NCBI GenBank assembly: GCA_043821445.1
Contig: JBDRCT010000013.1
Location: 6,270 to 70,269, forward strand
Reading direction: 5' to 3'
Length of the DNA stretch: 64,000 nucleotides
DNA from: Candidatus Omnitrophota bacterium
Lineage (GTDB): Bacteria > Omnitrophota > Omnitrophia > Omnitrophales > Aquincolibacteriaceae
The notes below the pieces were generated by a model that was given only the letters and a program-made list of their open reading frames with translations, had not been told where the DNA came from and searched no databases. Made by a program: the position numbers and the translations under genes. Shown here in pieces: positions 1 to 37,964 of this stretch. Every line of letters starts with the position of its first letter. The first letter of the stretch is position 1.

Positions 1-1874
1 ATCACGAGACTGTAGCGAAGGGCGTCGGCCCCCATCTCTTCGATCACTTCAAGCGGGTCGATGGAATTCCCGAGCGATTTCGACATCTTGAGCCCGGTGA
101 CCGCGCGAACCGTGCCGTGAATATGGATCTGGGTGAACGGGACCTCCCCCATGAATTCAAGGCCCGCCATGATCATGCGCGCCACCCAGAAGAAAATGAT
201 CTCCGGAGCGGTCACAAGGTCCGAGGTCGGGTAGAACCTCTTCAGGTCTTCTGTTTGATCGGGCCAGCCCAAGGTCGAGAACGGCCAAAGCCAGCTGGAA
301 AACCAGGTGTCGAGGACGTCTGGATCTGGCACAAATAATTCAGGTGATGAGTGACCATTTGGACATTTTGTTGGATGTTCTTCTCGTGAAATAAAAGGAA
401 TCGCATTTCCTAAATCAATTCTATCTTTTACTTCAAGATGCGCCCTAGGAATTGTTTTATTAGGCGCTAACTTACCACCCTTAGGATCTGCGTGCGCCTG
501 TATATCAGGATAACATTCACCGCAATACCATGCCGGAATCCTATGCCCCCACCAGATCTGGCGCGAGATGCACCAGTCGCGGATACCGCCGAGCCAGTTC
601 AGATAAACTTTGGTCCAGCGGTCCGGATAGAAAACCGTTCTTCCCTGCTCGTGCGCCTTAAGGGCCTTCGCGGCCAGGGGCTGCATTTTCACGAACCATT
701 GTTTGGAGAGATAAGGTTCGACCACGGTGTCACACCGGTAGCAATGTCCGACCGCATACAGATGCGAATCGCGCCGGACGAAAAGCCCCTGGTTTTCCAG
801 GTCCTTCAGGATTTTTTTGCGCGCCTCAAAGCGGTCGAGCCCCTTGTAGGCGCCTCCGTATTTATTGATCTTGCCGTCCGGCGTCATGACATTGATCTGC
901 TCAAGCTTATGACGGTGCCCCATCGCGAAGTCGTTGGGGTCATGCGCGGGCGTGACCTTCACGATCCCGGTCCCGAACTCAGGGTCCACGAATTCATCCG
1001 CGATCACCGGGATCCCGCGGTCCATGAGCGGCAGGATGACCTTCTTGCCGATCAAGTGCTTGTAACGCGGATCGTCCGGATGCACCGCGACCGCCGTATC
1101 GCCTAGCAGGGTCTCGGGCCGTGTGGTCGCGACCACGATATGGTCTTCCCCCATCTTTTCGTAGGGACTGCTCTTCCCCGCGATGGGATACTTGATGTGG
1201 TACAGTCCGCCCTGCACGTCCTTGTGGGCGGCTTCTTCGTCCGAGAGCGCGGTCTGGCAGCGCGGGCACCAGTTGATGATGTAGTTGCCGCGGTAGATCA
1301 GCCCGCGCTCATAGAGCGTAACGAACGCTTCACGCACCGCCTTGGAAAGCCCTTCGTCCATGGTGAACCGTTCGCGTGTCCAGTCACAGGAAGCTCCGAG
1401 CCGGCGGAGCTGGCGCGTGATGGTCGACCCGTGTTCGTTCTTCCATTTCCACACTTCTTTTAAAAAAGCCTCACGACCGACGTCCCACCGGGTTTTCTTT
1501 TCCTTGGCCAGTTTCTTCTCGACCACATTCTGTGTTGCGATCCCCGCGTGGTCCACACCCGGCACCCAGAGCGTATCCCGGCCTTTCATGCGGTTCCAAC
1601 GGACGAGAACATCCTGGATAGAATTATTGAGCGCATGGCCCATGTGAAGGATGCCCGTTACGTTCGGCGGCGGGATCACGATGACGTACGGAAGAACCCC
1701 AGACTGCGGACTGCAGACGGCAGACTTTTCTTTTGTTTTTGCTGTGGTCTGTGGTCTGTGGTCTGTAGTCTGAGCGGCTCCGTCGCTCTGCGGACGGAAA
1801 TAGCCCTTCGATTCCCAGAGGGAATACCACTTGGTTTCGACTTGCTTGGAATTGTATTGCTTGTCTAGTTTCAT
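1..1874 (-). CDS. valS: valyl-tRNA synthetase, N-terminal roughly 620 aa (gene runs off the window start)
   Basis: Manual minus-strand translation from ATG (complement of 1872-1874) gives [28 protein letters not shown]...[17 protein letters not shown]...[13 protein letters not shown]...EVWKWK...DTWFSS...KMSKS with no stop down to position 1. The ORF is absent from the track because it has no in-window stop. Class I aaRS HxGH-like (HMGH) and KMSKS motifs are present. Confidence 0.85.
335..530 (-). other. AT-rich (about 33% GC) mosaic segment inside valS encoding a Cys-x2-Cys...Cys-x3-His knuckle insertion
   Basis: Codon usage switches abruptly to AT-rich codons (AAT AAA ACA ATT CCT ... TGT CCA AAT GGT CAC) for the stretch [79 protein letters not shown]. 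Flanks are about 60% GC. Confidence 0.7.
1744..1772. repeat. GGTCTGT heptad tandem repeat (about 4 units) lying in frame inside the valS N-terminus
   Basis: ggtctgtggtctgtggtctgtagtctg encodes ..[10 protein letters not shown].. between the conserved YFRP and [13 protein letters not shown] blocks. The same heptad family recurs at about 28713-28735, 28803-28816 and 47020-47050. Confidence 0.8.
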
Positions 1875-1880
1875 ATTTTT

Positions 1881-1960
1881 TAGCGCAATGCGCGAAGCAC
1901 AACGCGCAACGTAAAAACCTGGCCTTTCCGTTGAGCGTTGCGCGTAGAACGTTGCGCGAG
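1881..1960. repeat. Repeat family A copy 1: roughly 80 bp GCGCAACG-rich palindromic element
   Basis: gcgcaatgcgcgaagcacaacgcgcaacgtaaaaacctggcctttccgttgagcgttgcgcgtagaacgttgcgcg. Inverted arms of CAACGCGCAA/CGTTGCGCG units flank a taaaaacctg core. Near-identical copies are at 4889-4967, 8959-9018 and 31467-31535. Confidence 0.8.
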
Positions 1961-1961
1961 A

Positions 1962-3533
1962 TCAGCCTTTGTGCAGTTTATATTCGATGGCTTCCACGAG
2001 GGCTTTCCAGCTGGCTTCGATGATGTTCTCATGAACGCCCACCGTGGTCCAGGTCCTGTTCTTGTCCTGGAATTCGATGAAGACGCGCACCTTGGCGGCG
2101 GTCCCGGCCTCGGAGTTGACGACGCGCACTTTATAATCCGTCAGGTGGATCTCGGAGATCGACGGGAACGAACGGCCGAGCGCTTTGCGGAGCGCGGAAT
2201 CAAGCGCGTTCACCGGACCGTCCCCTTCGGCGGATTCAAAATGCTCCTCCCCCCCGGCCATAATTTTGACGTCCGCGATGGAACGAGGGATCCCTTTGCC
2301 GATATTTTCGGTGCGGACCGAGATGTCCTCGACTTTAAAGAACGGTTTGAATTTTCCGAGAAGTCTTTGCACCAGAAGCTCGAAGCTCGCCTCCGCGGCC
2401 TCGAATTGGTAGCCCTCGTGCTCGAGGCGCTGGATCTCGGTCAAGATCTTCTGCGTCTCGGGCGAGTCCTTCCGAAAATGCATCTCGAGTTCCCGGGCCT
2501 TGATCATGATATTGGTCTTCCCGCCAAGCTCGGAGACGAGATAGCGGCGATAATTGCCGAGGGCCTTGGGTTCCACATGCTCGTAGGTTTTGGCGTTTTT
2601 TATCATCGCATTGATGTGCACGCCGCCTTTATGCGCGAACGCGGAACGGCCCGTGAACGGCTGGTGGTTCACGAGCGGCATATTGCAGACCTCGGCCACG
2701 TAGTGCGAGAGCTGGGTCCATTCCTTCATCTTCTTCGCCGGAAAGCAGGGGGTTTTCATTTTGAACTGCAGGTCCGGGATGATGCTTATGAGATTCGCGT
2801 TCCCGCAGCGTTCCCCGTAGCCGTTGATCGTTCCCTGCACCAGGACGCATCCTTCGCCCACCGCCTGGATGGAATTTGCGACCGCGAGTTCGGAATCATT
2901 GTGGCAATGGATGCCGAGCGGCGCTTTCACGGAGCGCTTCACTTTAAGGATCGCGTGACGGATCTCGTGCGGCAAGCTCCCGCCGTTGGTGTCACAAAGC
3001 GTGAGATTGTCGGCCCCCGCCGCCGCGGCCCTTTGGAGTGCTTTGAGCGCATAGTCGGGGTTCGCTTTAAAACCGTCGAAAAAATGTTCCGCGTCAAAGA
3101 TCACTTCGAGCTTCCGGTCCTTGAGATAAGCGACCGTCTCGTAGATCATCAGAAGATTTTCTTTGAGCGTGGTCTTAAAGACTTCCGACACGTGGAAATC
3201 CCAGGATTTCCCGAACACCGTCACCACCCGGGTGCCGGCCCCGATCAAAGCCTTCACATTGGAGTCGTCCTTGACCTTGGTGTGGGCGCGCCGCGTGGAG
3301 CCGAAGGCCGTGATCTTGGAACGCTGGATCCCGGCTTTCTTGACCATCGTGAAGAATTCCATGTCCTTGGGGTTCGAGCCCGGCCACCCGCCTTTGATGT
3401 AATGAATGCCGAACTTATCAAGCCGTTTCGCGATCAGGACCTTGTCGTGCGAAGACAGACTGATCCCTTCCGCTTGGGAGCCATCCCTTAAAGTCGTATC
3501 GTAAAATAGTATTTTTTTCTTTTTGGTCTTCAT
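1962..3533 (-). CDS. cimA: (R)-citramalate synthase / 2-isopropylmalate synthase family (LeuA/CimA, with C-terminal regulatory domain)
   Basis: 523 aa. N-terminal YDTTLRDGSQAEGIS, HCHNDSELAVANS, GTINGYGERCGNANL and a C-terminal LeuA-dimer-like domain. Closest in pattern to the CimA-type (DTTLRDGxQAE) rather than LeuA (DTTLRDGEQSPG). Confidence 0.7.
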   Translation of the reverse strand: MKTKKKKILFYDTTLRDGSQAEGISLSSHDKVLIAKRLDKFGIHYIKGGWPGSNPKDMEFFTMVKKAGIQRSKITAFGSTRRAHTKVKDDSNVKALIGAGTRVVTVFGKSWDFHVSEVFKTTLKENLLMIYETVAYLKDRKLEVIFDAEHFFDGFKANPDYALKALQRAAAAGADNLTLCDTNGGSLPHEIRHAILKVKRSVKAPLGIHCHNDSELAVANSIQAVGEGCVLVQGTINGYGERCGNANLISIIPDLQFKMKTPCFPAKKMKEWTQLSHYVAEVCNMPLVNHQPFTGRSAFAHKGGVHINAMIKNAKTYEHVEPKALGNYRRYLVSELGGKTNIMIKARELEMHFRKDSPETQKILTEIQRLEHEGYQFEAAEASFELLVQRLLGKFKPFFKVEDISVRTENIGKGIPRSIADVKIMAGGEEHFESAEGDGPVNALDSALRKALGRSFPSISEIHLTDYKVRVVNSEAGTAAKVRVFIEFQDKNRTWTTVGVHENIIEASWKALVEAIEYKLHKG

Positions 3534-3546
3534 GATGAACTACCCG

Positions 3547-3628
3547 AGTATCAAAGCATCAGGGTGTCAAGGTGTCAAAATTTTAAAGTTTTAGCGTTTT
3601 GATACATTGATACTCTGATACCCTGATA
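3547..3628. repeat. Repeat family B copy 1: GTGTCAA / TTGATAC imperfect palindromic spacer element
   Basis: gtatcaaagcatcagggtgtcaaggtgtcaaaattttaaagttttagcgttttgatacattgatactctgataccctgatact. It fills the cimA-lysC intergenic gap exactly. Related copies are at 7329-7404, 32646-32712 and 53921-53960. Confidence 0.75.
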
Positions 3629-4849
3629 CTATTTTTTGCCGAGTCCGAACGCCTGGTGAATGACGCGGGCGGCAAGCCTGCCTTTATCGCCGGCCACCAC
3701 GACTGAGATCTTGATCTCGGAAGTGGAGATCATATCGATATTGATCTTGTTCTTGGCCAGGGTCGAGAACATCTTCGACGCGATGCCGGAATGGGACCGC
3801 ATGCCGATCCCGACCACGCTCACCTTCGCGATATGTTCGTCGCAGGTGACGTTCGTGGCGCCGACCTTCTTCATGGCCGCTTTCACGACCTTCATGGCCT
3901 TCACAAGTTCGTTCTTAAAAACGGTAAAAGAAATGTCCGTGGAATTCGTCTGCGTTTTGTTCTGGATGATCATATCCACGTTCACATTCGCGTCCGCCAG
4001 GGTCTGAAAGACCTTGGCCGCCACGCCCGGACGGTCCGAGACGCGGAACAGGGTGATCTTGGCTTCATCTTCGGCGAGTGCGACGCCGCTTACAACGACT
4101 TCTTCCATGGCTTTATTCTCCTTCGTGATAAGAGTTCCTTTGTGGTCGTTCTGGGAATTACAGACCCAGATCGGCATGTTGAATTTCTTTCCGACTTCGA
4201 TCGAACGTGAATGCATCACTTTTGCGCCGAGTGACGCGAGCTCCAGGATCTCGTCATAAGTGACCCGGTCCATCTTTTGCGCTTCCGGGATCACGCGCGG
4301 GTCCGCGGTGAAGATCCCGTCCACGTCCGTGTAGATCTCACAATGCTTTGCCCTGAGCGCCACCGCGAGCGCCACGGCCGTGAGGTCCGAACCGCCGCGA
4401 CCGAGCGTCGTGATCTCGCCTGAGGACGTTTGGCCCTGGAACCCGGCGACGATCACGATCTTGCCGGCGGACAGGGCTTTCTTGATGCGGTCCGCGCTGA
4501 TGTTCTGGATGCGGGCTTTGCTGTGGAATTCATCCGTGATGATCCCCACCTGCGAACCCGTGAAAGAAACCGCTTCGTGGCCTAATGTATGGACCGCCAT
4601 CGCCAAAAGCGCGATCGAGACCTGCTCCCCGGTCGAAAGAAGCATATCCATTTCACGCTCCTGGGGATCTTTATTGATCTGGTCTGCGAGCGCGATCAGG
4701 TCATCGGTCATATCCCCCATCGCGGAAACGACCACGACGACCTTGTGTCCCGCCTGTTTTGTCTTGATCACGCGTTGCGCGACACGCAGGATCTTTTCCG
4801 CATTCGCGACCGAAGAACCTCCGTATTTCTGTACGACTAATGACATATT
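3629..4849 (-). CDS. lysC: aspartate kinase (monofunctional, two ACT domains)
   Basis: MSLVVQKYGGSSVANAEKI...VVVVSAMGDMTDDL...GRGGSDLTAVALA plus C-terminal ACT repeats. The likely true start is the internal ATG (MSLVVQKYGG) at 4849; the track ORF extends to 4894. Confidence 0.85.
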   Translation of the reverse strand, partial: NMSLVVQKYGGSSVANAEKILRVAQRVIKTKQAGHKVVVVVSAMGDMTDDLIALADQINKDPQEREMDMLLSTGEQVSIALLAMAVHTLGHEAVSFTGSQVGIITDEFHSKARIQNISADRIKKALSAGKIVIVAGFQGQTSSGEITTLGRGGSDLTAVALAVALRAKHCEIYTDVDGIFTADPRVIPEAQKMDRVTYDEILELASLGAKVMHSRSIEVGKKFNMPIWVCNSQNDHKGTLITKENKAMEEVVVSGVALAEDEAKITLFRVSDRPGVAAKVFQTLADANVNVDMIIQNKTQTNSTDISFTVFKNELVKAMKVVKAAMKKVGATNVTCDEHIAKVSVVGIGMRSHSGIASKMFSTLAKNKINIDMISTSEIKISVVVAGDKGRLAARVIHQAFGLGKK

Positions 4850-4888
4850 CTTTCCTTTGTTTCGTTGAGTTAGAAAGTTCAATAAAAA

Positions 4889-4967
4889 GCGCAACGCTCA
4901 ACGGGCAACGCACAACGTTAAAACCTGAAAAAATTCGTTGCGCTTTGCGCGTAATACGTTGCGCTCG
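4889..4967. repeat. Repeat family A copy 2
   Basis: gcgcaacgctcaacgggcaacgcacaacgttaaaacctgaaaaaattcgttgcgctttgcgcgtaatacgttgcgctcg, lying between the thrB-like stop and the lysC start. Confidence 0.8.
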
Positions 4968-4986
4968 TAAAGGACGCATTTCTCCT

Positions 4987-6192
4987 TTACGAAGCTTTTG
5001 TCATGAAAAAAGGCATCAGCTCCGTGGTTTTGTTGAATTTCACTTCTGAAGTCTTGGCCGCGATCTCCGAGAACCGCTCGATCTCGCCGGGCATGATATT
5101 CTTGCCGCTCATGGCGAACGGAACGCTGTCGCGGACGATCTCTTTCATTTTCCAAAGGGTCGCATGCCCCGGCGTGACCAGAAGGCGCGAATCCTTGGAG
5201 CGCTCAAGATATTTGCGGATCTTCGAGAGAACAAAAAAATCGATCCCCTCGATCGCCGAGACCTTCCCCTTCACATCCCCGGCCCGCGACGCTTCCTCGG
5301 GAGTATGAAGATGGAGGCAAACAAAATCTTTTTCTTCCATGGCCTCGATCGCCACCTTGGAGATCTTGTCATAAAAAGCCGCGGGCTCTTCGCCCCCCTC
5401 CTTGACCTCCATGACCGTGAGCCCCGCCATGCGGCCCAGGCCCCTCGCGTATTCGCGCGCGGCGACCATCGCGCCTCCGGAAACGTCAAAACATTCGCGG
5501 AAAGGTTTAAGGACCGGCTTCTTTCCCTGCCCCCAAAGCCAGATCATGTTCGCGGGATTCTCGCCGAGATCCACGCGCACCTGGTTGATCTCATGATCCT
5601 GCAAGAGAAGCCTGGCGTCATACATCAATTTCCGCATCAATTCCTCGCCCGGGCCCTTCGGCAGCACATCCTCGATCTTTTCGCCGATCACGCTTTCCGG
5701 CGGCTGGGTCTTCGCGGACAGGGCATCAAATCCGTTCGCGTCCTTGATCACCGCAAGATGCCGGTGCCCGGAACCCGAGAAGAACCGCACAAAATCGCTG
5801 GCGACCTTTTTGTTCAAAAAGTTGACAAGCGCCTTCGCCTCTTTAGTGCTAATGGCTCCGGCGGTCGGATCGGCCAACATGCCCGCTGCCTCGGTGATGA
5901 AATTCATGCAGAATGCGACTTCTTTGTCGTCGAGCGTCAATTCCTTGTCGGCAGCCTCCAGCGGCCCGCGGCCGGTATAAAGCTTCGACGCATCGTAGCC
6001 TAAAAGATTGTACAGGCTTATATCCGCGGAAAGCGACAGACGGTCGGAAACAAGCTTCGCGGTCCCTACCTTGCCGTTCCGCGCAAAAAAGGTCAGATTC
6101 GGGACCTTGGCCGCTTCCAAGGGAGTTTTTCCTCCGAGCTCTTCGGTTGGATGATCCGCAGCGCCCGCGAGAACCACAACGATAGATTTCAT
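4987..6192 (-). CDS. Cofactor-independent phosphoglycerate mutase-like metalloenzyme (ApgM / PF01676 family). Its position in the thr operon suggests it is the non-canonical homoserine kinase.
   Basis: 401 aa with an ApgM-like fold ([15 protein letters not shown]..., ..[18 protein letters not shown].., ..LLVTPGHAT..). Its stop overlaps the thrC start by 4 nt, and it sits between thrC and lysC exactly where thrB would be. No canonical GHMP-kinase thrB is present in the operon. Confidence 0.6.
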
Positions 6193-7259
6193 CGGATAAC
6201 CTCCTTTACGGCATCGAGAGTGGATTTGACCTTAGAGATCGGATCGTCAAAACTGAGCGCAAAATCAGGGTCTTTGAGCCCCGCACCTGTCAGCGTGATC
6301 ACAATGCGGGACCCTTCTTTGAAAAATCCTTTTTTCGCAAGGTTGATCACTCCTGCGACCGGCGCAACGCTGGCCGGTTCCGCGAAAACGCCCTCGCGCT
6401 CCGCGATAAAACGGTACGCCTTCGTGATCTCCGTATCCGTCACCTTATCGATCAGGCCGCCCGATTCGTCGCGCGCGTTAACGGCACCCTGCCAGCTTGC
6501 AGGATTCCCGATACGGATGGCGGTCGCGATCGTCTCCGGTTTCTCCACCGGATGCCCCAGTACGATCGGGGCGGAACCCGCGGCTTGAAAGCCGAGCATT
6601 TTCGGTAAGGTCTCGGACTTCCCCGCTTTTTTATATTCCTTGTAGCCCTTCCAATAAGCCGTGATATTACCGGCATTCCCGACCGGGATCGCGTGATATT
6701 CCGGCGCGTCCCCGAGATCGTCGACGATCTCGAAGGCCGCTGTCTTCTGTCCTTCGATGCGGTACGGATTGATGGAATTTACAAGCGTGATCTTTCCTTC
6801 CCGGGTGATCTCTTGCACGAGCTCAAGCGCCTTGTCAAAATTCCCCTCGACCATAATCACCTTCGAGCCGTAGCGGTACGCCTGCAGGAGTTTTCCTTTG
6901 GCGATCTTCCCTTCCGGGATCAACACAAAACATTTGAGGCCGCACCGGCACGCGTAAGCCGCGGCGGAGGCGGACGTATTCCCGGTCGAGGCGCACATCA
7001 CGGCCTTCGAGCCCGCTTCGACCGCCTTCGAAATCGCCAGGGTCATCCCGCGGTCCTTGAACGAGCCCGTCGGGTTCAGGCCTTCGAATTTGTAATAGAT
7101 CCGGATATTCTTCAGACCAAGTTCCAGGGGCAAGGCCTCCGCCAGAATGAGCGGCGTGTTGCCTTCATTGAGCGAAATGATGGGAGTCTTATCCGTGACC
7201 GGAAGATACTCCTGATAACGCTCGATGATCCCGATCTTTTTGACCGCGTATTTTCCCAT
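6189..7259 (-). CDS. thrC: threonine synthase
   Basis: 356 aa; PLP-lysine motif [18 protein letters not shown]; fold-type II PLP enzyme; short ThrC form. Confidence 0.85.
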
Positions 7260-7328
7260 AAAATTCTACCTTTTACCGTTCAGTTTAAACCTTTTAGTTT
7301 TTGTCATTCCTGAAACTGAAGCAACTCG

Positions 7329-7404
7329 CATCAAAGTATCACGGTGTCAATGTATCAAGGTTTTAAAGCTTTACCCTTTGACACTTTGATGCGCTGACAC
7401 TGAC
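7329..7404. repeat. Repeat family B copy 2
   Basis: catcaaagtatcacggtgtcaatgtatcaaggttttaaagctttaccctttgacactttgatgcgctgacactgac, in the hom-thrC intergenic spacer. Confidence 0.75.
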
Positions 7405-7474
7405 CCATTTCCAACTTCCTGAATTTCTGTCCGCACAAGAAAAACATGCTGGAACCGGAATAACGCTCCGAGCC

Positions 7475-8770
7475 CTACGCCTCTTCCATACGGATGACCT
7501 GGGTCCTGCCTTTGATACAGGACATGCCGTCGATCTCGCGGACCGCGGCCCTTAGGTCTTTTTCTTGGGTATCGTGCGTCAAAAGGATGAGCGGCACCAC
7601 GCGCCCGGCGCTGCGTTCGCGCTGCATGACATCCGAGATGCTGATCTTGTGTTTCCCTAGGATCTTCGAGATGTTCGAAAGCACGCTGGGTTTGTCGATC
7701 ACATAGAACCTCAAATAATAACGCGACAGGATCGAAAAAATACTTTTCACCGGAAGGGTCTTCCCGAGCGCTCGGACCATGAACCGGTCCTCGGCGGGCC
7801 CCGCGGCCCCGGCCTTGGCGATATCCACCAGGTCCGCGATCACGGCACTTGCGGTCGGATGCGGCCCCGCCCCCCGACCGTAAAAAAGCACATCCCCCAC
7901 TTCGTCGCCGCGCATCAGGATCGCATTGAACGAACCGTTCACATTTGCGAGGATGTGCGAATTCGGCAAGAGGGTCGGCTGGACGCGCGCTTCCATACCC
8001 TTTCTCGATCGTTTGGCGATCGCGAGCAATTTGATCGTGTACCCGAATTCCTTGGCGAAGGCGATATCATCGCTTGAGATCTCGGTGATCCCTTCGCAGT
8101 AAATGTCCTTGAATTTCACTTTCCCGCCGAAAGCGAAACGGGCGAGGATCGCAAGCTTGTGGGCGGCGTCGTGCCCGCTCACGTCAAGAAAAGGGTCCGC
8201 CTCGGCGAAACCCTGCTTTTGAGCGCCGGCCAATGCCTCGGCGAAGCTCATGCCCTTGGCGGTCATCTGGGTCAGAATGTAATTCGTGGTCCCGTTGATA
8301 ATGGCATGCACCGAATCGATACGGTTCGCCGCAAGCCCTTCACGAAGTGCCTTGATGCACGGAATACCACCCCCCACGCTCGCCTCGAAACAAAGCCAGC
8401 GTTTCATCCGGTGCGCGAGTTCGAAGATCTCATCGCCGTGTTCGGCCAGAAGGGCTTTGTTGGCGGTCACCACATGCTTGCCGTTCCGGAGCGCTTCTTT
8501 GATCAACTGCCGGGCGACCGTCGTACCCCCGATCAGTTCGACCACGACATCGATGGACGGATCCCGCACGACGGCAAAAGCGTCCCGGGTCATGAGGTGT
8601 TTCGGAGGATGGACTTTTTTATTCCGCCCGGGATATTTCTCCGCGATCTTCGCGAGTTCGAAAGACACCCCCAGTTGGCGGGCGAATAAAGCCCTCTTCG
8701 CCGTAAGGATCTCATAAAGCCCGGTGCCGATCTGTCCCAACCCGAGAAGTCCGATCTTGATCTTTTTCAT
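7475..8770 (-). CDS. hom: homoserine dehydrogenase (with C-terminal ACT domain)
   Basis: MKKIKIGLLGLGQIGTGL NAD-binding N-terminus, catalytic domain and C-terminal ACT. True start is ATG at 8770, preceded by GAGAGGAAAT; the track ORF starts at an upstream TTG. Confidence 0.85.
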   Translation of the reverse strand: MKKIKIGLLGLGQIGTGLYEILTAKRALFARQLGVSFELAKIAEKYPGRNKKVHPPKHLMTRDAFAVVRDPSIDVVVELIGGTTVARQLIKEALRNGKHVVTANKALLAEHGDEIFELAHRMKRWLCFEASVGGGIPCIKALREGLAANRIDSVHAIINGTTNYILTQMTAKGMSFAEALAGAQKQGFAEADPFLDVSGHDAAHKLAILARFAFGGKVKFKDIYCEGITEISSDDIAFAKEFGYTIKLLAIAKRSRKGMEARVQPTLLPNSHILANVNGSFNAILMRGDEVGDVLFYGRGAGPHPTASAVIADLVDIAKAGAAGPAEDRFMVRALGKTLPVKSIFSILSRYYLRFYVIDKPSVLSNISKILGKHKISISDVMQRERSAGRVVPLILLTHDTQEKDLRAAVREIDGMSCIKGRTQVIRMEEA

Positions 8771-8850
8771 ATTTCCTCTCAAGTAAACGCCCTAAGTTCA
8801 GTCATGACAAAACCTTAAGAAAGTCGGGGTAGCCCTGATTTTCGATCCAT

Positions 8851-8917
8851 AAAAAAATAACAAGGTGATCAGGACAACCCTGACTTCCTTGTTAATTCCC
8901 CGAACGAAAGTCAGGGT
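8851..8917 (-). promoter_or_regulatory. Candidate transcription attenuator (terminator / antiterminator alternative hairpins) in the 5' leader of the hom-thrC-thrB-lysC-cimA operon
   Basis: On the minus strand: AACAAGG-[aagtcagggttgtcctgatca]-CCTTGTT followed by AUUUUUUUA, an intrinsic terminator with an inner tcagg/cctga stem. An upstream CCCTGACTT...AAGTCAGGG 9-bp stem overlaps the terminator's 5' arm, so the two are mutually exclusive. The structure ends about 80 nt before the hom ATG. Confidence 0.4.
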
Positions 8918-8958
8918 AGTATATCTCACCCTAAAGTAAAAATCAAACAGCCCTTCCT

Positions 8959-9018
8959 CGCACAACGCGCAAAGCTCAACACACAACGAATCGAGCGTTG
9001 CACGTTGCGCGTTGCGCT
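8959..9018. repeat. Repeat family A copy 3
   Basis: cacaacgcgcaaagctcaacacacaacgaatcgagcgttgcacgttgcgcgttgcgc, upstream of the thr operon leader. Confidence 0.75.
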
Positions 9019-9102
9019 TGATCTTCCTCTCCCTTTACTTTATGGTTCGTTGATGTATACTACCCTTGTTTTTGTGAAAAAATATCAACTCAGAGGCCAA
9101 AA

Positions 9103-9528
9103 ATGATGAATAAGTTCATCCCCGCTCTTGTTCTTGTCTCAGCAATCGCTGGTTTTGGTATGGCGCGGTCCGGCCAGTACGATGAAGATGCGCGCGCACA
9201 GGAAAAGATCCAGAAACAGATGGCTCAAGAGGTTTCAACGTCCGAAAAACGCCATCCCGCAAAGAATTTCGCGACGGGCGTCAAAGAGGTCACGTATGAT
9301 AACGTCCGGGACACTTTAAGCGATACGGGTGGATCCACCATGCATGAGAAACCGGTGATCGGAACCTTGGATGGAACGCAACAGGCCGGAGAGAAGGTCG
9401 TCGATAACACCATCAAGGGCGTCAAGAAGGTCGCGTCCCTCGGCTACGCGAAGGATGACAGCTACGAGATCGAACAAGCCGAAAAAGGCTCCGGTGACGC
9501 CGCCAAGATCAGACTCTTCCAGTTTTAA
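9103..9528 (+). CDS. small secreted hypothetical protein (signal peptide)
   Basis: 141 aa. N-terminal MMNKFIPALVLVSAIAGFGMA signal-like segment followed by a hydrophilic K/E/D-rich region. AGAGG sits 9 nt upstream of the ATG. Confidence 0.5.
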   Translation: MMNKFIPALVLVSAIAGFGMARSGQYDEDARAQEKIQKQMAQEVSTSEKRHPAKNFATGVKEVTYDNVRDTLSDTGGSTMHEKPVIGTLDGTQQAGEKVVDNTIKGVKKVASLGYAKDDSYEIEQAEKGSGDAAKIRLFQF

Positions 9529-9551
9529 AAATTACGCGGCACTTCAACAAA

Positions 9552-9583
9552 AAAGCCGGGCTAAAAAAGCCCGGCTTTTTTTA
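9552..9583. terminator. Bidirectional rho-independent terminator shared by the convergent 9103-9528 gene and the giant ORF
   Basis: aaaaagccgggctaaaaaagcccggcttttttt: a perfect GC stem flanked by A-run and T-run, 24 nt after the plus-strand stop and 17 nt after the minus-strand stop. Confidence 0.85.
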
Positions 9584-9599
9584 TGTCTCGACCCGATCA

Positions 9600-12500
9600 T
9601 TAAGCCGCAACGGCAAAGGCAAGGGTGGCGTCGTAACTTCTCTGAAGGGCATTGACCAGGGACTCGGCCACGATCCAGAACCCATCCCGGCCTTGGCTTA
9701 CTTCCCGAAGCCTTGCATCTTCCCCGCCGGACCACGCCCAAAGGAGCGCTGCCGCCAAGGTCCCGCCATTTTGCCCCTGTGTTTTGAAGAAAGAGACTCT
9801 TTTCCTCAGACGCTGGACCAATTCCTGGGATGGAAGGATCTGCTTTGAAAGATGAATGCCCGGCGCGCCCGGCCGGTCAAAACTGCTCTGAGCCCCCGCA
9901 AGGCCCCGGTCGGTCCTCGTCACGTGATCAAGCTTCAGCAAAGCGCCAAGCTCTTGGTCCCGCACCTGGCCGCGCTCATTATAAACCACGATCCGGACTC
10001 CCTGCCCGGAAAGGGCCGCGTAAAAATATTCGTTCTTCTGCGCCACGGAAAGATTCGGAAAATCCTCGGCATCCACGAACACCGTTGCCGGCTGTACGCT
10101 CTTGCGGATGTCCCGGACCATTCTGTCGGCAATATCTTTATGGGATGTCGCGTTTCTTTTACCGGCTTGTATATTCGTGAGGGTGTGCCGCATATCCGTC
10201 TCAACGCGGACTTCGGAACGACGTTCCGAAACTGCTGCTGCGAACAGCGGATTCTGTTGCAACGGGCGCGCTATCGTCGCAAATAAGTCACGGGTTCTAT
10301 CGGCCCGCTTCATCGCCCAAACGTTTAAAATAGACGCGGTCGGCTCGTTCACATACCGCGTCTCAGGACGGATCTGTCCTTCGCTTTGCAAAGGCGGATC
10401 GGGACGCCGGCCTTCGGCCTTGCTTAAGGCATTACGTTCAACGCTCAACGTATTTTTTTCTTCCGTTGTACGTTTCGCCTTGCCCGTTGTGCCGGAAATC
10501 CCCCTCACCTCGGACCGCTTGGTTCCCTCGCTCGCTTCTGAAGGCCGGGCAATGATTCGATCCAGCTGTGCTTGTTCCTCCCGGAGATGGGGATAATCGT
10601 ACTCAAAAACACCGGACTCGTTCCTGAACATATTAAAATAGGCGCTGACCTTGTCATTCCAGCCATGCGCCGCGACAGCGGCCTGAAGCACGATCGTTTT
10701 CCTGTGGTCTTTGTTCCTGATCGCTTGGATCCCCCGGGTCACCGCCCTCAGAAATCCTTTGCCGTTGAATTCCTGAAAGAAAAATGCATCTCCCATCCCT
10801 CTTTGCGGGTCGAATTCATTCAGCGTATCGGCGATCCCTCCGACCTCGTGGGCCACTACCGCGGTCCCGGCCGAAAGTGATTCCAACTGGCTCAGACCTC
10901 CCGGTTCATATTTCGACGGCATCAAAAAGAGATCGCTCGCGAGATAGATCCTGAGCGCCTCACGGAACGCGATGAACTCAAATTCTCCCCGGACCCTTCC
11001 TGCGTATTTCGGGTCCGCTTCCAGAGCGCGGATCGCGTCCCTAAGCGCATACGCGCTTGGGTCGAAGTCGGCAATCGGGCCCGCGATCAAAAGCTGGACA
11101 CGGGGGTCCCGGTCCAGGATATTTTTCGCTTCGCTGGCCACTAATTCCACGCCCTTCTGGTCCGCGATCCTCCCGACCATGGAAACAAGGATGGCATCCT
11201 CCCGTTCCTCCAGGCCGTATTTGTTTTGAATTTCTCGCTTGGCGAAATCTTTGAATTGGGGCAAGTTTTGGAAAAAAGCGGCCGGGTCTTCTGTCCCGGG
11301 GTCACCCCCGCCCATGCGGATGAATTCGGTCCTCAGGGCTTCGATATCGATCCCGTTACTGATCCCGTAGACCTTTCCCTTCTTGAGAAAGTCTTCATGA
11401 AGACCGTTCCCTTTTTCGGGGGTCTGGATCTCGCGGGCATAACTTTTGCTGACGGTCAATGCGAAATCTGAATGGAGGATCCCTCCGCGGACCAGATTCA
11501 ACCGGGTCGGATGGTCCGGATTTTCCCCTTCGCGATTAGAAAGTCCCCTGTAGTGCTGCCCTTGCAGGCGGAACAGCGGCCACAAGTCGATCCCATTCTC
11601 GATCGTAAAAAAGCGCGCCTGATAATCGCGGCCTAAATTGTGCATGGCAAAACCGAGTTTGGGCACGAGTCCCGTTTCGAGATCATAAAAATGCTCGTCC
11701 GTGCGGTAGTCAAAATCTCCTGGGATCGGATCCGCTTTAAGATAAGCAAAGGCCGGCGCTGCCATCCAGTCATGAGCGAGGATAAAGTCCGGATAAAGGT
11801 CGAACTCCCGCATTACTTCCAGGCTTCCGCGCGACAAAAGGATCGACCGTTTCAATTGGTCGGAGGAGGAAACGCTCGGGTAGAGCCGGTTGGCCAGATG
11901 CGGGTGATAGAGAAAATAGATCGTAACCCCCTCGTTTTGAGCCCGGTAAACCTCCGCCGTCTCCGTGTGCGCGGGACTCTCAACGCGGTTCGAAAAGACA
12001 TTGATCGTGGGCCCCAGCGCGACCTGAACGCGCCGTCCCGTCGCCTCAAGCCGTACCGTTTTCCCGCCCATCTGGATCCCGTTCCGGAGAAGTTCTTCCG
12101 CACTCGTATGTTTTTTCCCCTGCGATTCGTTATAAAGAAAGGTCACGATACTGACTTCGGAACCCGCTTGCGCCAGTGCCTTGGGAAGGCCTTCCAGGAC
12201 CTGGGCCATTCCGCCCGCGATCGAGAACGGGGCGATTTCGGGCGAGATCATGACCACATGCCCGACACCGATATTCTCGATGACCTTCAGCGCGATGTCC
12301 CACTCGCTGCCCGCCCCCGTCTGCAACGCGATTTTCTTCAATTTGTTCCTGTAGTCGGAGACGAGTTGCTGCAGGATCGCGTCATTCCGGGTCACCTCAA
12401 AAAGCCAGCGGGACAGAAGTCCGGGCCCCTTGCCCTCCTCCGCGAGAGTCTGCCGCAAGCGGACCATCACTTGGACGAAGGTATCCAGATTTTTCAGACT

Positions 12501-15500
12501 GCTCTTTATTTCATTTTTCCACTGCGTTCTCATCTCAGCGCGTTTCGCAGCACTTGTGAGTGCGCCTTCCAATGGATGCTTCGGATCATCGGCGGCCCGC
12601 ATCTCAGAACGTGCAACGCCGGTCCCTTTACTTTGAAAATAATGATCGAAGATCCTCTCTGTCTCTTTCGCGGACAATGCACCTTCCTCATGGGGCGGTT
12701 GGATCAAAGAAAAGTTCCCCGGGAGAGGCTTCCCGACCGAAATCACATCCAAACCCGATAGATCCAAAAAGCTCCTGGCGACACCGTCCGCTTGGAATTC
12801 ATCGTCGAATACGATCATCCGTTCCCGGGAATGGCCCATGCCTTCGAGGTCCACGATGGCGTCATTTTTCCCCGTGGTCTTTTTACCGACCAATAAGACC
12901 CGGCCATCCGGACTTCGAAAAACCAGCCTTCCAAAAAATGTCGGCGATAACTGGCCACTTAAGGCCTTTCGCAGGTCCGAAAGCATGATACGTAGCTGCC
13001 ACCTCGGCATTTGGTTCTTGGGATTAACGTAGTAATCAAAATTAGGTGCATAGAGAAAGGGGGAATTTGTTCCGCGTGTTTTTTCTTTCTCAAATTGATC
13101 GAGCATCTTAGGCGTCGGCGCAAACCCGAATATTTCCTGCCACCGCCGATCCAGCTCATAAAGCGCGCTGACAATCTTCGGGCCCTCCCCGGCTTCGTCC
13201 TCTTTCCACCGTCTTTGTTTACCGTATCGTTCGAAATAGGCCTGATCTTCAACGATCTCAATCTTGTCGCGGTCACCGATGCGGAATGTGAATTTATGCC
13301 CAGCGCCCGACGAATAAAGCAGGAACCTGTCAAAATATTCCGGTTTAAAACCGGGATACCCGAAAAGGTTCTTAAGGAACCCTAATCCTCGTCCTTTTTC
13401 AAGGTTGGAAAAATCCGCGGGATTAAAAACACGCAGGGTATCGATCGCAACGGTCTTCCCTTCCTGAAACAGGCGGATCAAATGGTCGATCATCGCCGGA
13501 GAAACATAATCATGAAGAGTCACAAGCGTGTCGTCGACATCAAAAACGAACACATCCTTTTTCTTGAGTATCTCCGAAATATCTTCCCGGGAAGTGAGCC
13601 GCGGTGAAACGGTCGACCGCCAGGATCCTTCCGGTGATAATTTGAAATCGGCCCCCTCCCCGATCGAGATCTGAGCGCCTTGAGAAGCTAACTTAAATCC
13701 GGACCGCTCCAAAACTCCACGAACGGTTAAAGTCCCGACTTCCTGGTTGTTACTCCCCGCCAGCCGACTGAGCCAGCGAATATCTTCGCGGAACTCGTTC
13801 AAAGACTCGGCAATCTCCTCCAATTTGTCCGTGTACTGTCCTTCAAAAGAGTGAATATAATCATTCAGGAAGCCGATCCTATGGGCCAATCCTTCCAGCG
13901 TCATCATCCCCGGCAAAGAAACGCCGTATCCCAGAGAAAGGAATTGAAGTCGGTCACGCAGTTGCGGGTCGGTCACCTGCGGAACAACGGACCGTAAATT
14001 ACGCATCAAACTTCGCATGACCAATGGCGAAATCCGAGGCCTCCCATCGAATGGGTAGATGCAGTCGAGAAGAAACTTAACGGCTTCATTCGCGTTCAGA
14101 GAACCGGACTTTATCCACAGGGCCATGATCAACGCATACACACAGACTTGCATTGTCTCGGCCGCAAAAATGTTAGGGCCGCTATCATGCAACTCTCGCG
14201 CGGAATGCTCCTCCAAGATCCGAAGAATGTTTTCTTGAACGGTCCCCCACATTTCATCCGCTCGCGTCGCCATCGCCGTGATGGCCGCCGCACGAACCGC
14301 CGGGGAGAATCCGAGGACATCGTCAAACTGCTGCTTCTGATCTTCCGTCAGTGTGCGCTGCGCGGACCAAGACCGGATCTTCATGATCACGAGCTCGGGA
14401 TCCGTGTTTCTGTCCCAATGGTTCAGCACATCCAAAGCGTCTTTTCTTTGTCGCAATCGTTCTTCATAGGCCGCCGTGATCACAGACTCCCGTCCGGGAA
14501 CGGAGATTGTCTCGCGCCAATAACTATCCGACATAGATGCCGAACGCTCCCTCCAGACCAAAACCAATTTGCCGTCAAAGATCCGGACCATCTTTTCCAT
14601 AAGAAGCTCGCGCAAACCGTCCGCCAGAGATTTATCATCCTCTTCTGCGACCGCAAGACTCATCGTTCCGGACCGGTAAGCCTCGTCCAACTTTTCGATC
14701 CAGCGCAATGCCACCGGAGATAATCGCCGTTTCTCGAACGCATCCATGAATCCTCGAATCTCCACGCATCGTCTTGCCAGCCAATCCATCTGTTGGTCCG
14801 CACTGCCGCGTTCGATCAGCTTACGGGCATACTCCGGATCCAATTCTCCGAGAGAAAGGAACCATTTTATCCGCGCGACATGTTTGTCGGGAAGCACCAT
14901 GAGCGGAAGAACGCCGCGCCGGATCTGTTCTTCAGGCCCGATAAATTGTCCGTTTGAATAGAGGCTGATATAAGGCAGTAGATTGCGCCCTTCGGGTCCC
15001 CATATCTTTTTTTGATGATCCGCGGACAGCAACTGAGGAACCTTCCCGTCTCCCGCGTCCATTTTGATCCCGGAACCGGTCAGCCATTGTTTCATGAGCG
15101 GCTGTAGCGCCTGGAGTTCCTCCTGCGACACACCTTCGACGATGACATAAGTAGAGTCAAAATCGCTTTGGTCCAGTAAGATCCCCGCTGTCAGCGAATT
15201 TGGGAAAGAAAGAATCTCCTTAACGGAGGCCTGGGGATGGGTCCTGCGGACCTCTTCCTCAAGCCTCATGGTCGCGTATTTCAAAGCAGCCCACACGCGG
15301 CCGCTGATATTGTGAACCGGAACGCCTTCGTCGGCCGCATATTCAGCCATGGAGACCACCGGAACTTTCGCCTCTTGCCCAACCCTTTGGCGGCCATGGT
15401 AATGAGAATTTTCGATCATGCTCGAAGAAGCAAGGACCTTCACACCTTTTTGCTCCAAAGCCGTGATCATCCTCATCTGTTCTTCCCCGTCCGTCAGCTC

Positions 15501-18500
15501 GCCCGTGACTAAAATAACGGCATCGCCGGGCATCAACCGGTACATGCTGTACGCATAACCGTCCAAGCCGATATAGTTCACGGCCAGAGATGACATTTCA
15601 TCGTAGCCTACGGGCTCCGGACGGTTCGTCACACCGACAAACGGTACATGAGAAGCTTGAGAAAGTGCCACACCACCGTAGAAACCGGACGTCGATGGGC
15701 CTAGGACGTAAACCGTTTTTCCTTCTTTATAATATTCGCGTCGTATCGTTGCCAGAGGGGTCCCCAACACTTTCTCGATCTTCTGTTGCATGGCAGGTCC
15801 GAATTTCCGCAGCTGATCGGGGGTCAATGGAACGGTCATTCCGCGAAAAGCATGATCCGTCCAAACCCGTCCGGGATCGTTCCTCCTCGGATAGTGCCGG
15901 ATATCCAGATCAAGATCTGTGGGACCGGATAGGCCCTGGGCCTCGACCGATTCCGGCGGCATATAAAGCTCCACCGGCTGTTTGAACGGGAACATGTGTT
16001 GGCGGTCGAGCGCGGCTGAAACCTTTGCCAATTCCTCTTCTGTCAAAAAATCCAAATAAAAATACGGGACCGCTCCCCCCTCAAGCCTCTCGGAAGCTTC
16101 TTTAGAAGTCCTAAGAACTACCGCGGCGCCATCAAGACCAGCATTCGCGGCTTTCAGCATGTTCGCGATATTGACGACGACGCGACCGGTCGTGCTCTCG
16201 TCGTCGATCAAGAAGAACCGGCTCCCGGCGGGCACCACCATATGAGAGAAATATTCCGGGCTGTCCCGCAGCATATGTTGTTCTTCCATTTGAACCACGG
16301 ATTCTCCGGCCGGCAAGGTCGGATCGAACGGATCAAAACTCCGCTTGGTCAGCGTGATCATGGGAATACCGAGCTCCAAAGAAGCGAGTATGCCAGGGAC
16401 AAGTCCTGCGTTGTATTTTCCAATAATGAAAGAACGCGTCGGATCCCCTTTCATTTGTTCAAGCATGCGACGGCCCTCAGGGGTGCCTCGCAACTTTTCA
16501 AGGAGGGCGTGAACGATGCTTTCTCCCATGACAACCGAAAGAGGCTGGTGGCTTCCTGTGATCGGGACTCCCTTTTTGGGCGCATTCGAATGGAGCATTT
16601 CCGCCGGTCTGAATTTGGGGTGGAAAACAACGTTTACGGGCTGGATCCGCCCCTCATAAAAAAACATCCGTTTTTCATCCTCCGAAATGACCTCGCTGGA
16701 GGCTTTCCCAAAGATAGAACGAAGAACCCACTCCGGATCCATGCTTCCTAGGACATCTGCTTCACGACGGAAAACCCCAAGACTTGTCTCGCGCACGTTC
16801 TCTAAAATCAAAAGTTCCCCGTTGATCCGGATACGTCTTAAAGCTTGACTCACTGCATCTTCGCCGGTCCTCATTTCCGAACGCCGGGAATTTTCATTTA
16901 TCAGTTTAAAATACGCTTTTAAAATACGTTTTGCACGATCGGGTCCTGTGTCCGCATCACTGGATCTCAGTTGCAGCACCGGGACCTCTCCGGGAAGCGG
17001 CGCGGCGACGGACACCCTCGTCAAACCGGGCAACTTGAGTAAAGACACTTCGAGTCCGTCCGCCGCAAAATCATGCCCCCAAAAGCTCACCTTTTTCCTG
17101 GAAAGGCCCATCGCTTCAAGATCCAAAAGCGCTTCATTTTTTTGGTTGAACGTTTTAGCAACAACGATCCCTTTGCGCGAGACGACCCTAAACGTGAGGA
17201 GGCTAAAGACCTCAGGGGGCAATGCCCGGCTAAGAGCCTCCTTGAGATTTTCCAACATGATCCTTAACTTCCAATTCTCGATCTCCCCTTGCTTGCTCTG
17301 TGGGAAATACAGGATCGCCCTTTCGTCCTCCTGGATCTTTGCCCCACGTACAAAACCCTCATAATCACGGTCCGGATTAGGGAACCCGAAATCCGTCGAA
17401 AAACCGTTTTCGATCTCCAGGATCTTTCGCATGATGGCGGGAAGGTATTTTCCGTCCTCTTCGGAAAAAGTTTTCGAAGCTACAAACTTCGCCGAAAATT
17501 TCGTCTCCAGCACGGGTTCCACATTGAACCAACTCGGAGGCTGCTGGTTATGCCTCAAACGAAACCCATATTTGTAAGTCCCAAAGCCTGTATAAGCGAA
17601 AAGACGCCCGAGCATTTCTGGCTTAAAGTCGGGATGTTCAAAAATGTTTTTTAGAATGCCGATGCCGTCGCCTTTACGGATGTTCGCGAAATAATCCTCG
17701 ACCGTAAGCCCTCGCGCGGTGACCAAAGCCACAGTCTTGTGCCTTTTCAAAAGCTCGATGATCAGGCCGATGACCTCAGGATCAAAACCAGCCGGTGAAA
17801 TAAGAACGTCGTCAAGACCGAAGGCAAAGGTATCTCGATCTAAAAGCTGCTGCGCGATCTCCGTCTCGGTCTGCGTTTGGGTAGGAAGGTCCGGAATAAA
17901 AGTCGTCCCTTGGCGTACGAACCGGATCTTTTTCAAGTCCGGCGATCTTGCCGATTCTAGGGTAAAGACTGTACCGGCGCTGTCTGAGTGGAGTCCGAAT
18001 TTTGTAAGCATCCCCAAGGCTTGACCCCAGATCTTGGGATCTAAGCTCTGATTCATGGCGATGTTGATCACCTTCTGCACCGACGGTGTCACAAGTTCTT
18101 CCAAGACCCCCGTAATCTCCGTGGCGTAATTCGTCGGATCGCGTGGAAGAGTCTCTAAATAGCGACCGAGATATTTCAACTCCGCAGGAGGATGATTTTC
18201 TTCGATCTCATGGGTCATGACCGCGTCATCCGCTTGTTCCTGATGCCGCCTCAGAAAATCAAGCGCGGCGTCCAGTTCATCACGCCTCAGGGAATCCACA
18301 AAAGCGGTCCGGCCGATCCCGATCGGGACGACCATCATCAAACGGCCACCCTTATGCGCCTTGGCATCTTCCAGTCCTTCCCATGCGCGGTCAGGATTTA
18401 GGGCCGGATGATAGAAGGGCAATTTCAACTTGATATGTAACGAGAGAATGCGCCGGAAATCTTTATCGCTCAACATGCCGCGAGCGTGCGCGATGAAGGC

Positions 18501-31451: not shown

Positions 31452-31466
31452 AGATGCCTTTTAAAG

Positions 31467-31535
31467 CAGCGCAACGCGCAAAGCTCAACGTAAAAACTTG
31501 TTTTTCCGTTGCGCGTTGAGCGTAGAACGTAGTGC
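31467..31535. repeat. Repeat family A copy 4, in the divergent promoter region between the msbA-like gene and the Gfo/Idh/MocA gene
   Basis: gcagcgcaacgcgcaaagctcaacgtaaaaacttgtttttccgttgcgcgttgagcgtagaacgt. Confidence 0.75.
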
Positions 31536-31646
31536 GGCTCTGCCAAGAGCCGACACTGTAACATATTCGTTGACACTGCTCAAGGTTATGATTTAAGCTT
31601 CTGCGTTGTTTTTTCCCGATAACTCATGAATTGTAAAGGAGTTAGG

Positions 31647-32612: not shown

Positions 32613-32645
32613 TCAAACAAGAACCCATATGCGCTCACAAATATC

Positions 32646-32712
32646 ATAGTGTCCGAGTGTCAAAGTATCAAAACACTGACACGCTGACACCTTGACACCT
32701 TTGACACTTTAC
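32646..32712. repeat. Repeat family B copy 3
   Basis: agtgtccgagtgtcaaagtatcaaaacactgacacgctgacaccttgacacctttgacacttt, between the oxidoreductase stop and the lpxB start. Confidence 0.75.
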
Positions 32713-36752: not shown

Positions 36753-36830
36753 GGGACCCTTTTTATATAGAGATTGAGAAGTACCCCAGATAGTGTTTTC
36801 GGTCACTCAAATGAATTCTTGAGGGGTTTT

Positions 36831-37907: not shown

Positions 37908-37964
37908 AAACCCCTCTTTTCTGAAGCAAATCGTTCTCCAACAATATTGTTTAAACTTTTTTAA

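Follow-up and report, generated by a model that had tools for sequence, protein, structure and literature searches.

Heptamer-armed hairpin repeats lying in frame within valS and a giant open reading frame of a Candidatus Omnitrophota bacterium

How does a small interspersed repeat come to lie in frame between two conserved blocks of an essential aminoacyl-tRNA synthetase gene, and is the peptide that it encodes selected there? The question is raised by valS, the gene for valine–tRNA ligase (ValRS), at the start of a stretch of 64,000 nucleotides of Candidatus Omnitrophota DNA (GenBank assembly GCA_043821445.1, contig JBDRCT010000013.1, positions 6,270 to 70,269), which is called the window below. 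We regard it as probable that the element in valS belongs to a set of mobile or unstable heptamer-armed hairpin repeats, which are translated where they lie in open reading frames (ORFs) and are filtered by purifying selection to in-frame, hydrophilic copies in permissive loops. The features at this locus are as follows.

1-1874, minus strand: 5′ part of valS (valine–tRNA ligase), which continues beyond the window start; translated from the ATG at 1874
1689-1781, minus strand: variable loop of ValRS with its insert, residues 32-62, from helix alpha1 to the first Rossmann strand (orthologue alignments, loop-length census, AlphaFold)
1700-1772, minus strand: CAGAC-family heptamer-armed hairpin in valS, 73 nt (Tandem Repeats Finder (TRF), fold, hairpin census, family alignment A4)

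The arms of the valS hairpin are themselves tandem arrays. On the coding strand, the element is laid out as (CAGACYA)4 - CAAAAACAAAAGAAAA - (GTCTGNN)4, where the two arrays are mutually inverted. The 5′ arm (sense) at 1742-1772 consists of 4.4 copies of CAGACYA, given by TRF as the plus-strand unit CTGTGGT x4.4, and the 3′ arm at 1700-1726 consists of four copies of GTCTGNN, given as CAGACTG x3.9; the A-rich loop CAAAAACAAAAGAAAA occupies about 1727-1741. The element scores 21.5 in the hairpin census. The plus strand, with the help of G-T pairs, folds into a long hairpin (z = −3.2), and the fold on the mRNA strand is weak (z = −0.8). When GGTCTGTGGTCTGT was searched with at most 2 mismatches, 7 matches were found in the window against 0.24 expected, a number that none of 100 shuffles reached, and all 7 are confined to 1746-1773 and 28709-28827. 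The valS repeat is confirmed as present and non-random. The initial annotation had placed it at 1744-1772 and called it an element of the repetitive extragenic palindromic (REP) or miniature inverted-repeat transposable element (MITE) kind. The repeat is real, but this span covers only one arm of the 1700-1772 hairpin, whose inverted partner was located by TRF at 1700-1726; the label holds in that the elements are interspersed hairpin repeats.

The repeat had also been described as lying between conserved ValRS blocks with the frame kept, which translation and orthologue alignments bear out: conserved blocks shared across many phyla stand on both sides of the insert and confirm the insertion point. 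A valS start downstream of the repeat is contradicted by the conserved N-terminal block, which precedes the insert and shares its frame. The W-to-PPPN distance was measured in the 116 homologues whose N-terminus could be assigned: it is 22 aa in 99 and 21-26 aa in 111, and it exceeds 28 aa in only 5, whereas it is 48 aa in the window ValRS; apart from inserts, the length of this loop is strongly conserved. The closest empty allele (in the relative L083) has 26 aa, which gives a net gain of 22 aa (66 nt) in the window. The window ValRS matches PDB 1GAX (T. thermophilus ValRS) with E = 2e-68, in which ANPKSGKPP, a short loop that joins the first helix to the first Rossmann strand, stands at the place of the insert. 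In the AlphaFold model, which has a mean predicted local distance difference test (pLDDT) value of 85, helix 9-22 and strand 62-67 enclose residues 35-57 with pLDDT <50, and the insert is predicted to be a disordered loop. Every complete allele at four sites has a length that is a multiple of 3 and is free of stops in the frame used, and we infer that the insert is translated as an extra peptide.

A promoter and terminator scan of 1400-5200 showed no signal at the valS element, and the reading of the element as a regulatory terminator or attenuator was dropped because nothing appeared there. No Rfam match reached the gathering threshold anywhere in the window; in 1500-9700 (E <= 1), the matches obtained were all sub-threshold and attributable to chance.

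The same repeat family, together with a CCCCAATTTCCGC hairpin, had been reported in frame in a giant ORF of the window. This is confirmed for codons 73-136 by the sequence, by the translation and by homologues that have about 7 aa at this place. The giant ORF and its in-frame elements are listed below.

9600-29042, minus strand: giant ORF (6480 aa) of the Omnitrophota giant-protein type; a membrane helix lies at the N-terminus (ORF list)
28758-28826, minus strand: site A element 1, decayed CAGAC-type arms (sense CCGACCACAGACCACAGT ... CAGTCCTGACTAC), in frame (PTTDHSPNTFQFQRSGNWGSPDY) (sequence and translation)
28637-28731, minus strand: site A element 2, CAGAC-family hairpin with arms 28709-28731 and 28637-28669, in frame (DRLQTADSLSLRARDRVREKSLQSPVSSLRS) (TRF GAGACTG x4.9, fold, alignment A4)
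28300-28390, minus strand: site B, TAGGGNN-type heptamer hairpin, in frame (LADRVQGIGDSKKENSNDLNPKPYPLNPD) (TRF AGGGTTT x4.3, hairpin census)
10436-10494, minus strand: GCGCAAC-family hairpin near the C-terminus of the giant ORF, in frame (GTTGKAKRTTEEKNTLSVE) (pattern search, translation, alignment A3 with intergenic copies)

Codons 73-136 (28637-28826) are made of two CAGAC-type hairpins and nested small repeats, all in frame. The CCCCAATTTCCGC dispersed hairpin repeat (28771-28808) is nested between the arms of site A element 1, and a small hairpin, CCCTCAC..GAGAGGG (28676-28708), is nested in the loop of site A element 2, where an A6 run precedes the 3′ GTCT arm. The CCCCAATTTCCGC element is a true dispersed repeat, because a second, intergenic copy is found at 49310-49335. 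In alignment A1, the interval from ELGxIEESF to KTIIYIQDAHDSLEAQ is about 7 aa in most homologues and about 65-75 aa in the window, and the interval at site B is 1-2 aa in most homologues. The hairpins at site B and at 10436-10494 are in-frame copies in addition to those in the initial annotation. Homologues of the giant ORF were found only among Omnitrophota or unnamed metagenome proteins.

Some further observations concern the giant ORF. The arm unit of site B, (AGGGTTT)n at 28305-28334, corresponds when circularly permuted to the plant-type telomere repeat TTTAGGG, which is probably a coincidence. A short motif, RSEVR/RSEMR, recurs in the giant ORF (10200-10742), including beside the GCGCAAC hairpin, and at several positions of the homologues in alignment A1. 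A few genes away, a Tad/type-II-secretion-like pilus cluster at 33992-46088 contains a secretin, RcpC, TadE, two T2SS-F proteins, a T2SS-E ATPase, a ParA-like protein and a VWA protein. This arrangement agrees with a preprint that reports a secretion-like locus beside Omnitrophota giant genes (10.1101/2023.11.21.568195); DNA hairpin repeats are not mentioned in that preprint.

The state of the ValRS loop in close relatives carries most of the argument. The closest genome is the Candidatus Omnitrophota metagenome-assembled genome (MAG) L001 (RA.bin90), in which the ask-cimA-valS order is the same as in the window. Identities were computed over 334 shared columns with the inserts excluded, and the N-terminal loop is occupied as follows.

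Window: CAGAC hairpin; ValRS 91-92% identical to those of the Omnitrophota genomes L001 and L082
L001 and L082: GGGACTM/GAGTCCC hairpin, of a family unlike that of the window; 91-92% to the window
L083: empty (FGKKPVGKS); 88-90% to the window/L001/L082 group
L085: remnant of CGTGGNN type; 86-90% to the window/L001/L082 group
L081: CAGAC hairpin of the same family, orientation and frame as that of the window (QTTDQRLPTKDKEKSSVFSLQSS); 78-80% to the window clade
L084: empty; 96% to L081
L086: empty; 79-83% to all others

Because the relatives show either the empty state or one of three heptamer families, the simplest history would comprise at least three independent fillings of this one loop. 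The element in L081, L001 and L082 starts immediately past the A-run (GKK codons) that is found in the empty alleles.

Other sites behave in the same manner. In-frame hairpins occupy the ValRS Zn-knuckle in L001 (GGGACTC) and in L009 (another family), and L085 has a CAGAC copy there. In the giant gene, the closest relative (L207) is short at site A and empty at site B, and L208 has a CAGAC-family hairpin at site B where the window has TAGGGNN. Five copies with CAGACYA arms and an A-run before the GTCT arm were collected, from the window valS, the window giant ORF, the L081 valS, site B of L208 and the Zn site of the L085 valS; their sense orientation is identical in all five, and AAAAGTCT is present in four of them. 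Separate copies within L001 have an identical stretch of 22 nt in common. The ask-cimA spacer is 6 nt in L001 and 95 nt, with an octamer hairpin, in the window.

The Zn-knuckle site of the window valS, which is the site of heptamer hairpins in relatives, shows a peculiarity of its own. A patch of about 180 nt at 330-510 (minus strand), which encodes the Zn-knuckle region, has 38-40% GC as compared with 55-63% elsewhere in valS. The knuckle is about 30 aa above the usual length, its second Cys pair is degenerate (CPNGH), and residues 473-483 have pLDDT <50 in the AlphaFold model. The patch may have come from foreign DNA, from recombination or from an insert that has decayed.

The window contains further copies in intergenic spacers, to which no strand is assigned.

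1883-1958: GCGCAAC-family hairpin in the cimA-valS spacer (TRF GCGCAAC x4.1, hairpin census, pattern search, alignment A3)
4887-4966, 8959-9017 and 31465-31539: further GCGCAAC-family copies (TRF, hairpin census, pattern search, alignment A3)
3547-3630: octamer-armed hairpin of the GTRTCAAN family in the ask-cimA spacer (TRF, hairpin census, pattern search)
7327-7402, 32635-32704 and 53921-53951: further GTRTCAAN copies
47070-47187: ACAAGNN-type spacer hairpin
49297-49350: copy of the CCCCAATTTCCGC..GGAAATTG..TATTGGGACTGT dispersed hairpin repeat (core copy 49310-49335)

A strict periodicity detector returned only 4 arrays and was replaced, because it was too stringent, by TRF and a hairpin census in which G-T pairs were allowed. 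In the census, 8 periodic-arm hairpins lie in spacers and 3 in ORFs, and the family searches added 2 more copies in ORFs. Overall, about 10 copies are in spacers and 5 in ORFs, in a window that is mostly coding according to the ORF map. Covariation in families A3 and A4 amounts to 1-2 compensatory pairs only, which is uninformative because the cores are invariant.

The copies that lie in genes follow a regular pattern of frame and orientation. The valS element is open in five of the six frames. Its three sense frames are hydrophilic, with a mean hydropathy of about −1.5, and the three frames of the opposite orientation are hydrophobic (+0.7 to +1.35). All five in-ORF copies of the window use a hydrophilic stop-free frame (mean hydropathy −0.9 to −1.5). 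The GTRTCAAN octamer family, which has 0-1 open frames, occurs only in intergenic copies, with none in ORFs. When the in-ORF copies of the window and of the relatives are taken together, A exceeds T on the sense strand in 10 of 10, and of the hairpins on the two strands, that of the mRNA sense is weaker in 9 of 10, whereas the orientation of the intergenic copies (n = 8) is split 4/4. This is suggestively the pattern that a purifying-selection filter acting on random or semi-random insertions would leave, and elements designed for translation are not required to explain it.

On the reading preferred here, the genome would be dotted with hairpin repeats of about 60-120 nt that belong to several sequence families but share one architecture: an A/T-rich loop lies between two arms that are each a degenerate tandem array of 7- or 8-nt units, in which about 5 nt form a conserved core and 2-3 bases vary. 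Such repeats would be gained, lost and replaced rapidly through transposition-like copying and/or slippage with template switching, and most copies would settle in intergenic spacers. Within a gene, a copy would survive only with a net length that is a multiple of 3, a stop-free frame, a strand that encodes a hydrophilic disordered peptide, and a permissive surface loop as its site. In the window, the survivors would be the copy at 1700-1772 in valS and the four in the giant ORF, and translation would turn them into disordered extensions of their loops. The same few loops would be filled independently by different families because these loops are permissive and apparently preferred, being beside an A-run. 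We infer both the mechanism of mobility and this preference for loops next to A-runs. Single-strand transposition of the IS200/IS605 or RAYT (REP-associated tyrosine transposase) type is resembled in three respects: the target is not duplicated, the empty alleles look clean, and the ends are hairpins.

A bolder version of this reading can be put forward only tentatively. The heptamer-armed hairpins may constitute a distinct and widespread class of very small mobile elements, which would make no target duplication, excise precisely, move by a single-strand, 'peel-and-paste'-like route to sites by A-runs or existing hairpins, and carry a genome-specific heptamer 'code' that co-evolves with a putative cognate protein. 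If this were true, codons of essential genes such as valS would be reversible docking sites, and a slip of one unit (7 nt) would be a built-in frameshift switch.

Several points weigh against mobile or unstable repeats filtered by selection. No transposase, RAYT or Y1 transposase was found among the window genes scanned (64 kb). No target-site duplication is visible when L084 is compared with L081, or L083 with the window, L001 and L082, so that mobility is deduced from the distribution of the elements alone. The hairpins in the cimA-valS spacers of four genomes are each built from a different heptamer, which could reflect generation in situ rather than insertion. The orientation statistics are drawn from about ten in-ORF copies, not all of them independent, and a replication-linked bias is inseparable from a translation-linked one because nearly all window genes are on one strand. 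Finally, in L085 (GCA_016208605.1, JACQXQ010000248.1), the valS frame is broken at 1255-1325, inside the CAGAC hairpin of the Zn-knuckle, where the public gene call is truncated. A slip of one unit frameshifts the gene because 7 is not a multiple of 3, and removing exactly one heptamer from either arm of the L085 hairpin restores the full ORF; the break is either real slippage heterogeneity or a consensus or assembly error.

The strongest rival, which we consider unlikely, is that the repeats are not mobile and arise and change in situ, as heptamers slip and one arm is copied onto the other by quasi-palindrome (intrastrand template-switch) events, in contexts such as an A-run, where the local context would drive repeated expansion of the same loops. 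The four different heptamers in orthologous cimA-valS spacers of the same architecture speak for it, as do the slippage-prone nature of the arrays, exemplified by the one-heptamer error in L085, and the occurrence of heptamer-armed hairpins in many unrelated phyla, each with its own units. However, generation in place does not account for the CAGAC family, with its arms and the A-run before its 3′ arm, at unrelated loci of one genome, or for its presence at the same valS codon in lineages 78-80% identical while the 96%-identical sister is empty. The 22-nt identical segment in separate L001 copies and the dispersed repeats nested inside loops also argue against it, and a structured element of 78 nt would be hard to make de novo twice with the same sequence.

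A selected function of the insert is improbable. In this explanation, the peptide would be an adaptive linker or interaction module in ValRS and the giant protein, or the RNA structure would regulate translation; the preserved frame in an essential gene, the position of the insert next to the HIGH-motif strand and the presence of some insert at this loop in four of five close relatives are in its favor. The initial annotation had proposed selection for a 'TTDH(R/S)P-type linker', which is not needed: QTTDHRP / PTTDHSP recurs automatically with the CAGAC family in that orientation, because the three frames of a tandem heptamer all give one and the same peptide with a period of 7 aa. The insert sequences are unrelated between ValRS that are 91-92% identical, and the insert is absent in L083, L084 and L086; this want of conservation among close ValRS argues against a selected linker function. 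The predicted disorder of the insert and the negative promoter, terminator and Rfam results given above also count against an adaptive module.

It is highly improbable that the segment goes untranslated, whether removed from the message, bypassed by the ribosome or avoided by a downstream start. The sole point in favor is the strong hairpin potential, against which stand the in-frame N-terminal ValRS block upstream of the insert and the open extension of 246 codons in the giant ORF, which is not expected to stay open by chance; the multiple-of-3, stop-free alleles at the four sites would also be a needless constraint if the segment were removed. An assembly or consensus artefact has the least chance of all, since five independent assemblies from different samples have in-frame hairpin inserts at the same loop and perfectly conserved coding sequence flanks the window copy, although related assemblies do break at the repeats (the L085 contig starts inside the N-loop insert, and that of L082 ends inside the Zn-site array) and L085 has its one-heptamer frame error. 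These breaks cast no doubt on the window copy, whose frame is intact and which has counterparts in independent assemblies.

Several known systems resemble the mobile or unstable repeats proposed here. In PMC10969869, Rickettsia palindromic elements (RPEs; Ogata et al. 2000, 2002) are described as selfish palindromes in frame in housekeeping genes. Like the window elements, they are small palindromic interspersed repeats, located in frame in unrelated genes at fold-compatible positions and translated into additional stretches of peptide, with several families per genome. RPEs are about 100-150 bp long, with conserved family sequences and no tandem heptamers, in Rickettsia as the host, and this sets the window elements, hosted by Omnitrophota, apart. 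The trait shared by both is a palindromic repeat in frame in ORFs that is read through. RPE insertions are mostly inherited orthologously, whereas different families of the Omnitrophota elements (about 60-95 nt) swap, or none is present, at one codon among ValRS that are 86-96% identical. The likeness to RPEs is one of analogy and not of membership.

A second group of comparable elements is built from heptamers, and the cyanobacterial short tandemly repeated repetitive (STRR) sequences are heptamer repeats. Convergent (inverted) heptamer pairs have been described with GGGAATC in Xanthomonas and GGGGAYT in Nostoc (PMC4692102), and the heptanucleotide elements GGACCGG and MTYCTGA of Geobacter metallireducens occur within and between genes (PMC2700814). 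Like the window elements, the Xanthomonas, Geobacter and STRR pairs have 7-nt tandem units (3-5+ copies), often in opposite-strand arrays able to form a stem-loop, are mostly intergenic and use genome-specific units. The window elements likewise have at least 3 head-to-tail units and a stem-loop pair, with a minority in genes. The work on Xanthomonas and Nostoc (PMC4692102) is centered on G-quadruplex potential, which the window units do not have. In-frame filling of conserved loops of essential genes, empty, filled or replaced alleles, and a hydrophilic-frame filter are not part of the Xanthomonas, Nostoc and Geobacter reports. The initial annotation had called in-frame repeats of this kind unusual; as a category, this is overstated in view of the RPEs and the Geobacter elements (PMC10969869, PMC2700814).

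MITEs, REPs and REPINs (REP doublets forming hairpins) are also short, non-coding hairpin or inverted-repeat sequences, multicopy, mainly intergenic and sometimes intragenic, in genome-specific families (PMC10969869, PMC3116915, PMC3733652). The window elements have the terminal inverted repeats, small size, lack of coding capacity and multiple copies of MITEs, but their insertion abuts an A-run and shows no target-site duplication. Unlike MITEs, REPs and REPINs, they also have internally periodic arms. No linked transposase or RAYT was seen among the window genes scanned, and inspection of the arm sequences by eye showed no GTAG or CGTC head of the kind that marks the 20-40-nt REP palindromes. 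Palindromic amphipathic repeat coding elements (PARCELs) of Mollicutes (PMC2996958) and inverted repeats of Nematomorpha mitochondria (PMC6649704) are likewise embedded and translated within coding sequence. However, the repeats encoded by PARCELs are amphipathic and belong to surface proteins, those of Nematomorpha are long and perfect, and the organisms, sizes and sequence logic differ from those of the window. By analogy, the closest functional counterpart is the RPE, and the closest structural one is the inverted heptanucleotide pair of Xanthomonas and Geobacter. The Omnitrophota case joins the traits of both; what it adds is that, in an essential aminoacyl-tRNA synthetase, the repeats turn over rapidly at fixed codons, of which no description in Omnitrophota was found in the searchable literature.

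An essential, conserved enzyme in a little-studied phylum is thus seen to tolerate recurrent colonization of the same surface loops by unstable repeat DNA over a short evolutionary time. The filled, empty and replaced alleles in close relatives form a natural system for following the movement of hairpin repeats and their filtering by selection, and they offer a possible route to new disordered protein segments. On the practical side, metagenome assemblies break at the elements, and in Omnitrophota MAGs the genes affected, valS among them, can be given frameshifts that are not real or gene calls that stop short.

Paired arrays of period 7 or 8 were also found near or inside valS in Nitrospirae, Chloroflexota, Atribacteria, Gemmatimonadota, Aminicenantes and another Omnitrophota genome, each with its own unit. 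The hairpins at these valS loci, whose arms are tandem arrays of 7- or 8-nt units, are as follows.

L009: 4319-4374
L064: 3986-4048
L027: 2855-2960
L025: 2507-2639
L048: 2807-2929
L074: 1935-2186
L040: 5678-5799

Heptamer- and octamer-armed hairpins look like a general, poorly described class of bacterial repeat, to which the copies near valS in several other phyla point. A metagenome scan for (CAGACYA)3 returned plain microsatellites, some of them probably eukaryotic, mixed with true hairpin copies; it was not used as a census of reading frames, because stop-to-stop frames overstate the coding status (the L122 copy lies in a 5′ leader).

The rest of the window shows some minor features. Two full-length paralogues of the carbamoyl-phosphate synthase large subunit stand in tandem at 56629-59916 (1095 aa) and 59926-63147 (1073 aa), and a class-I glutamine amidotransferase comes next (63168-63938). 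It was considered whether the longer carB paralogue has an insert derived from a repeat, and this was rejected, as the two align with ordinary divergence and no repeat is seen. At 34083-34134, the 3′ end of the secretin gene contains a 24-nt tandem repeat, TCCTCCTCTTCAGAAGAAACGTCC x2.2, whose length keeps the frame. Between convergent genes that end at 9528 and 9600, a perfect 14-bp stem, AAAAAAGCCGGGCT / AGCCCGGCTTTTTT, is located at 9549-9581; it is not of the periodic-arm type and looks like a bidirectional intrinsic terminator.

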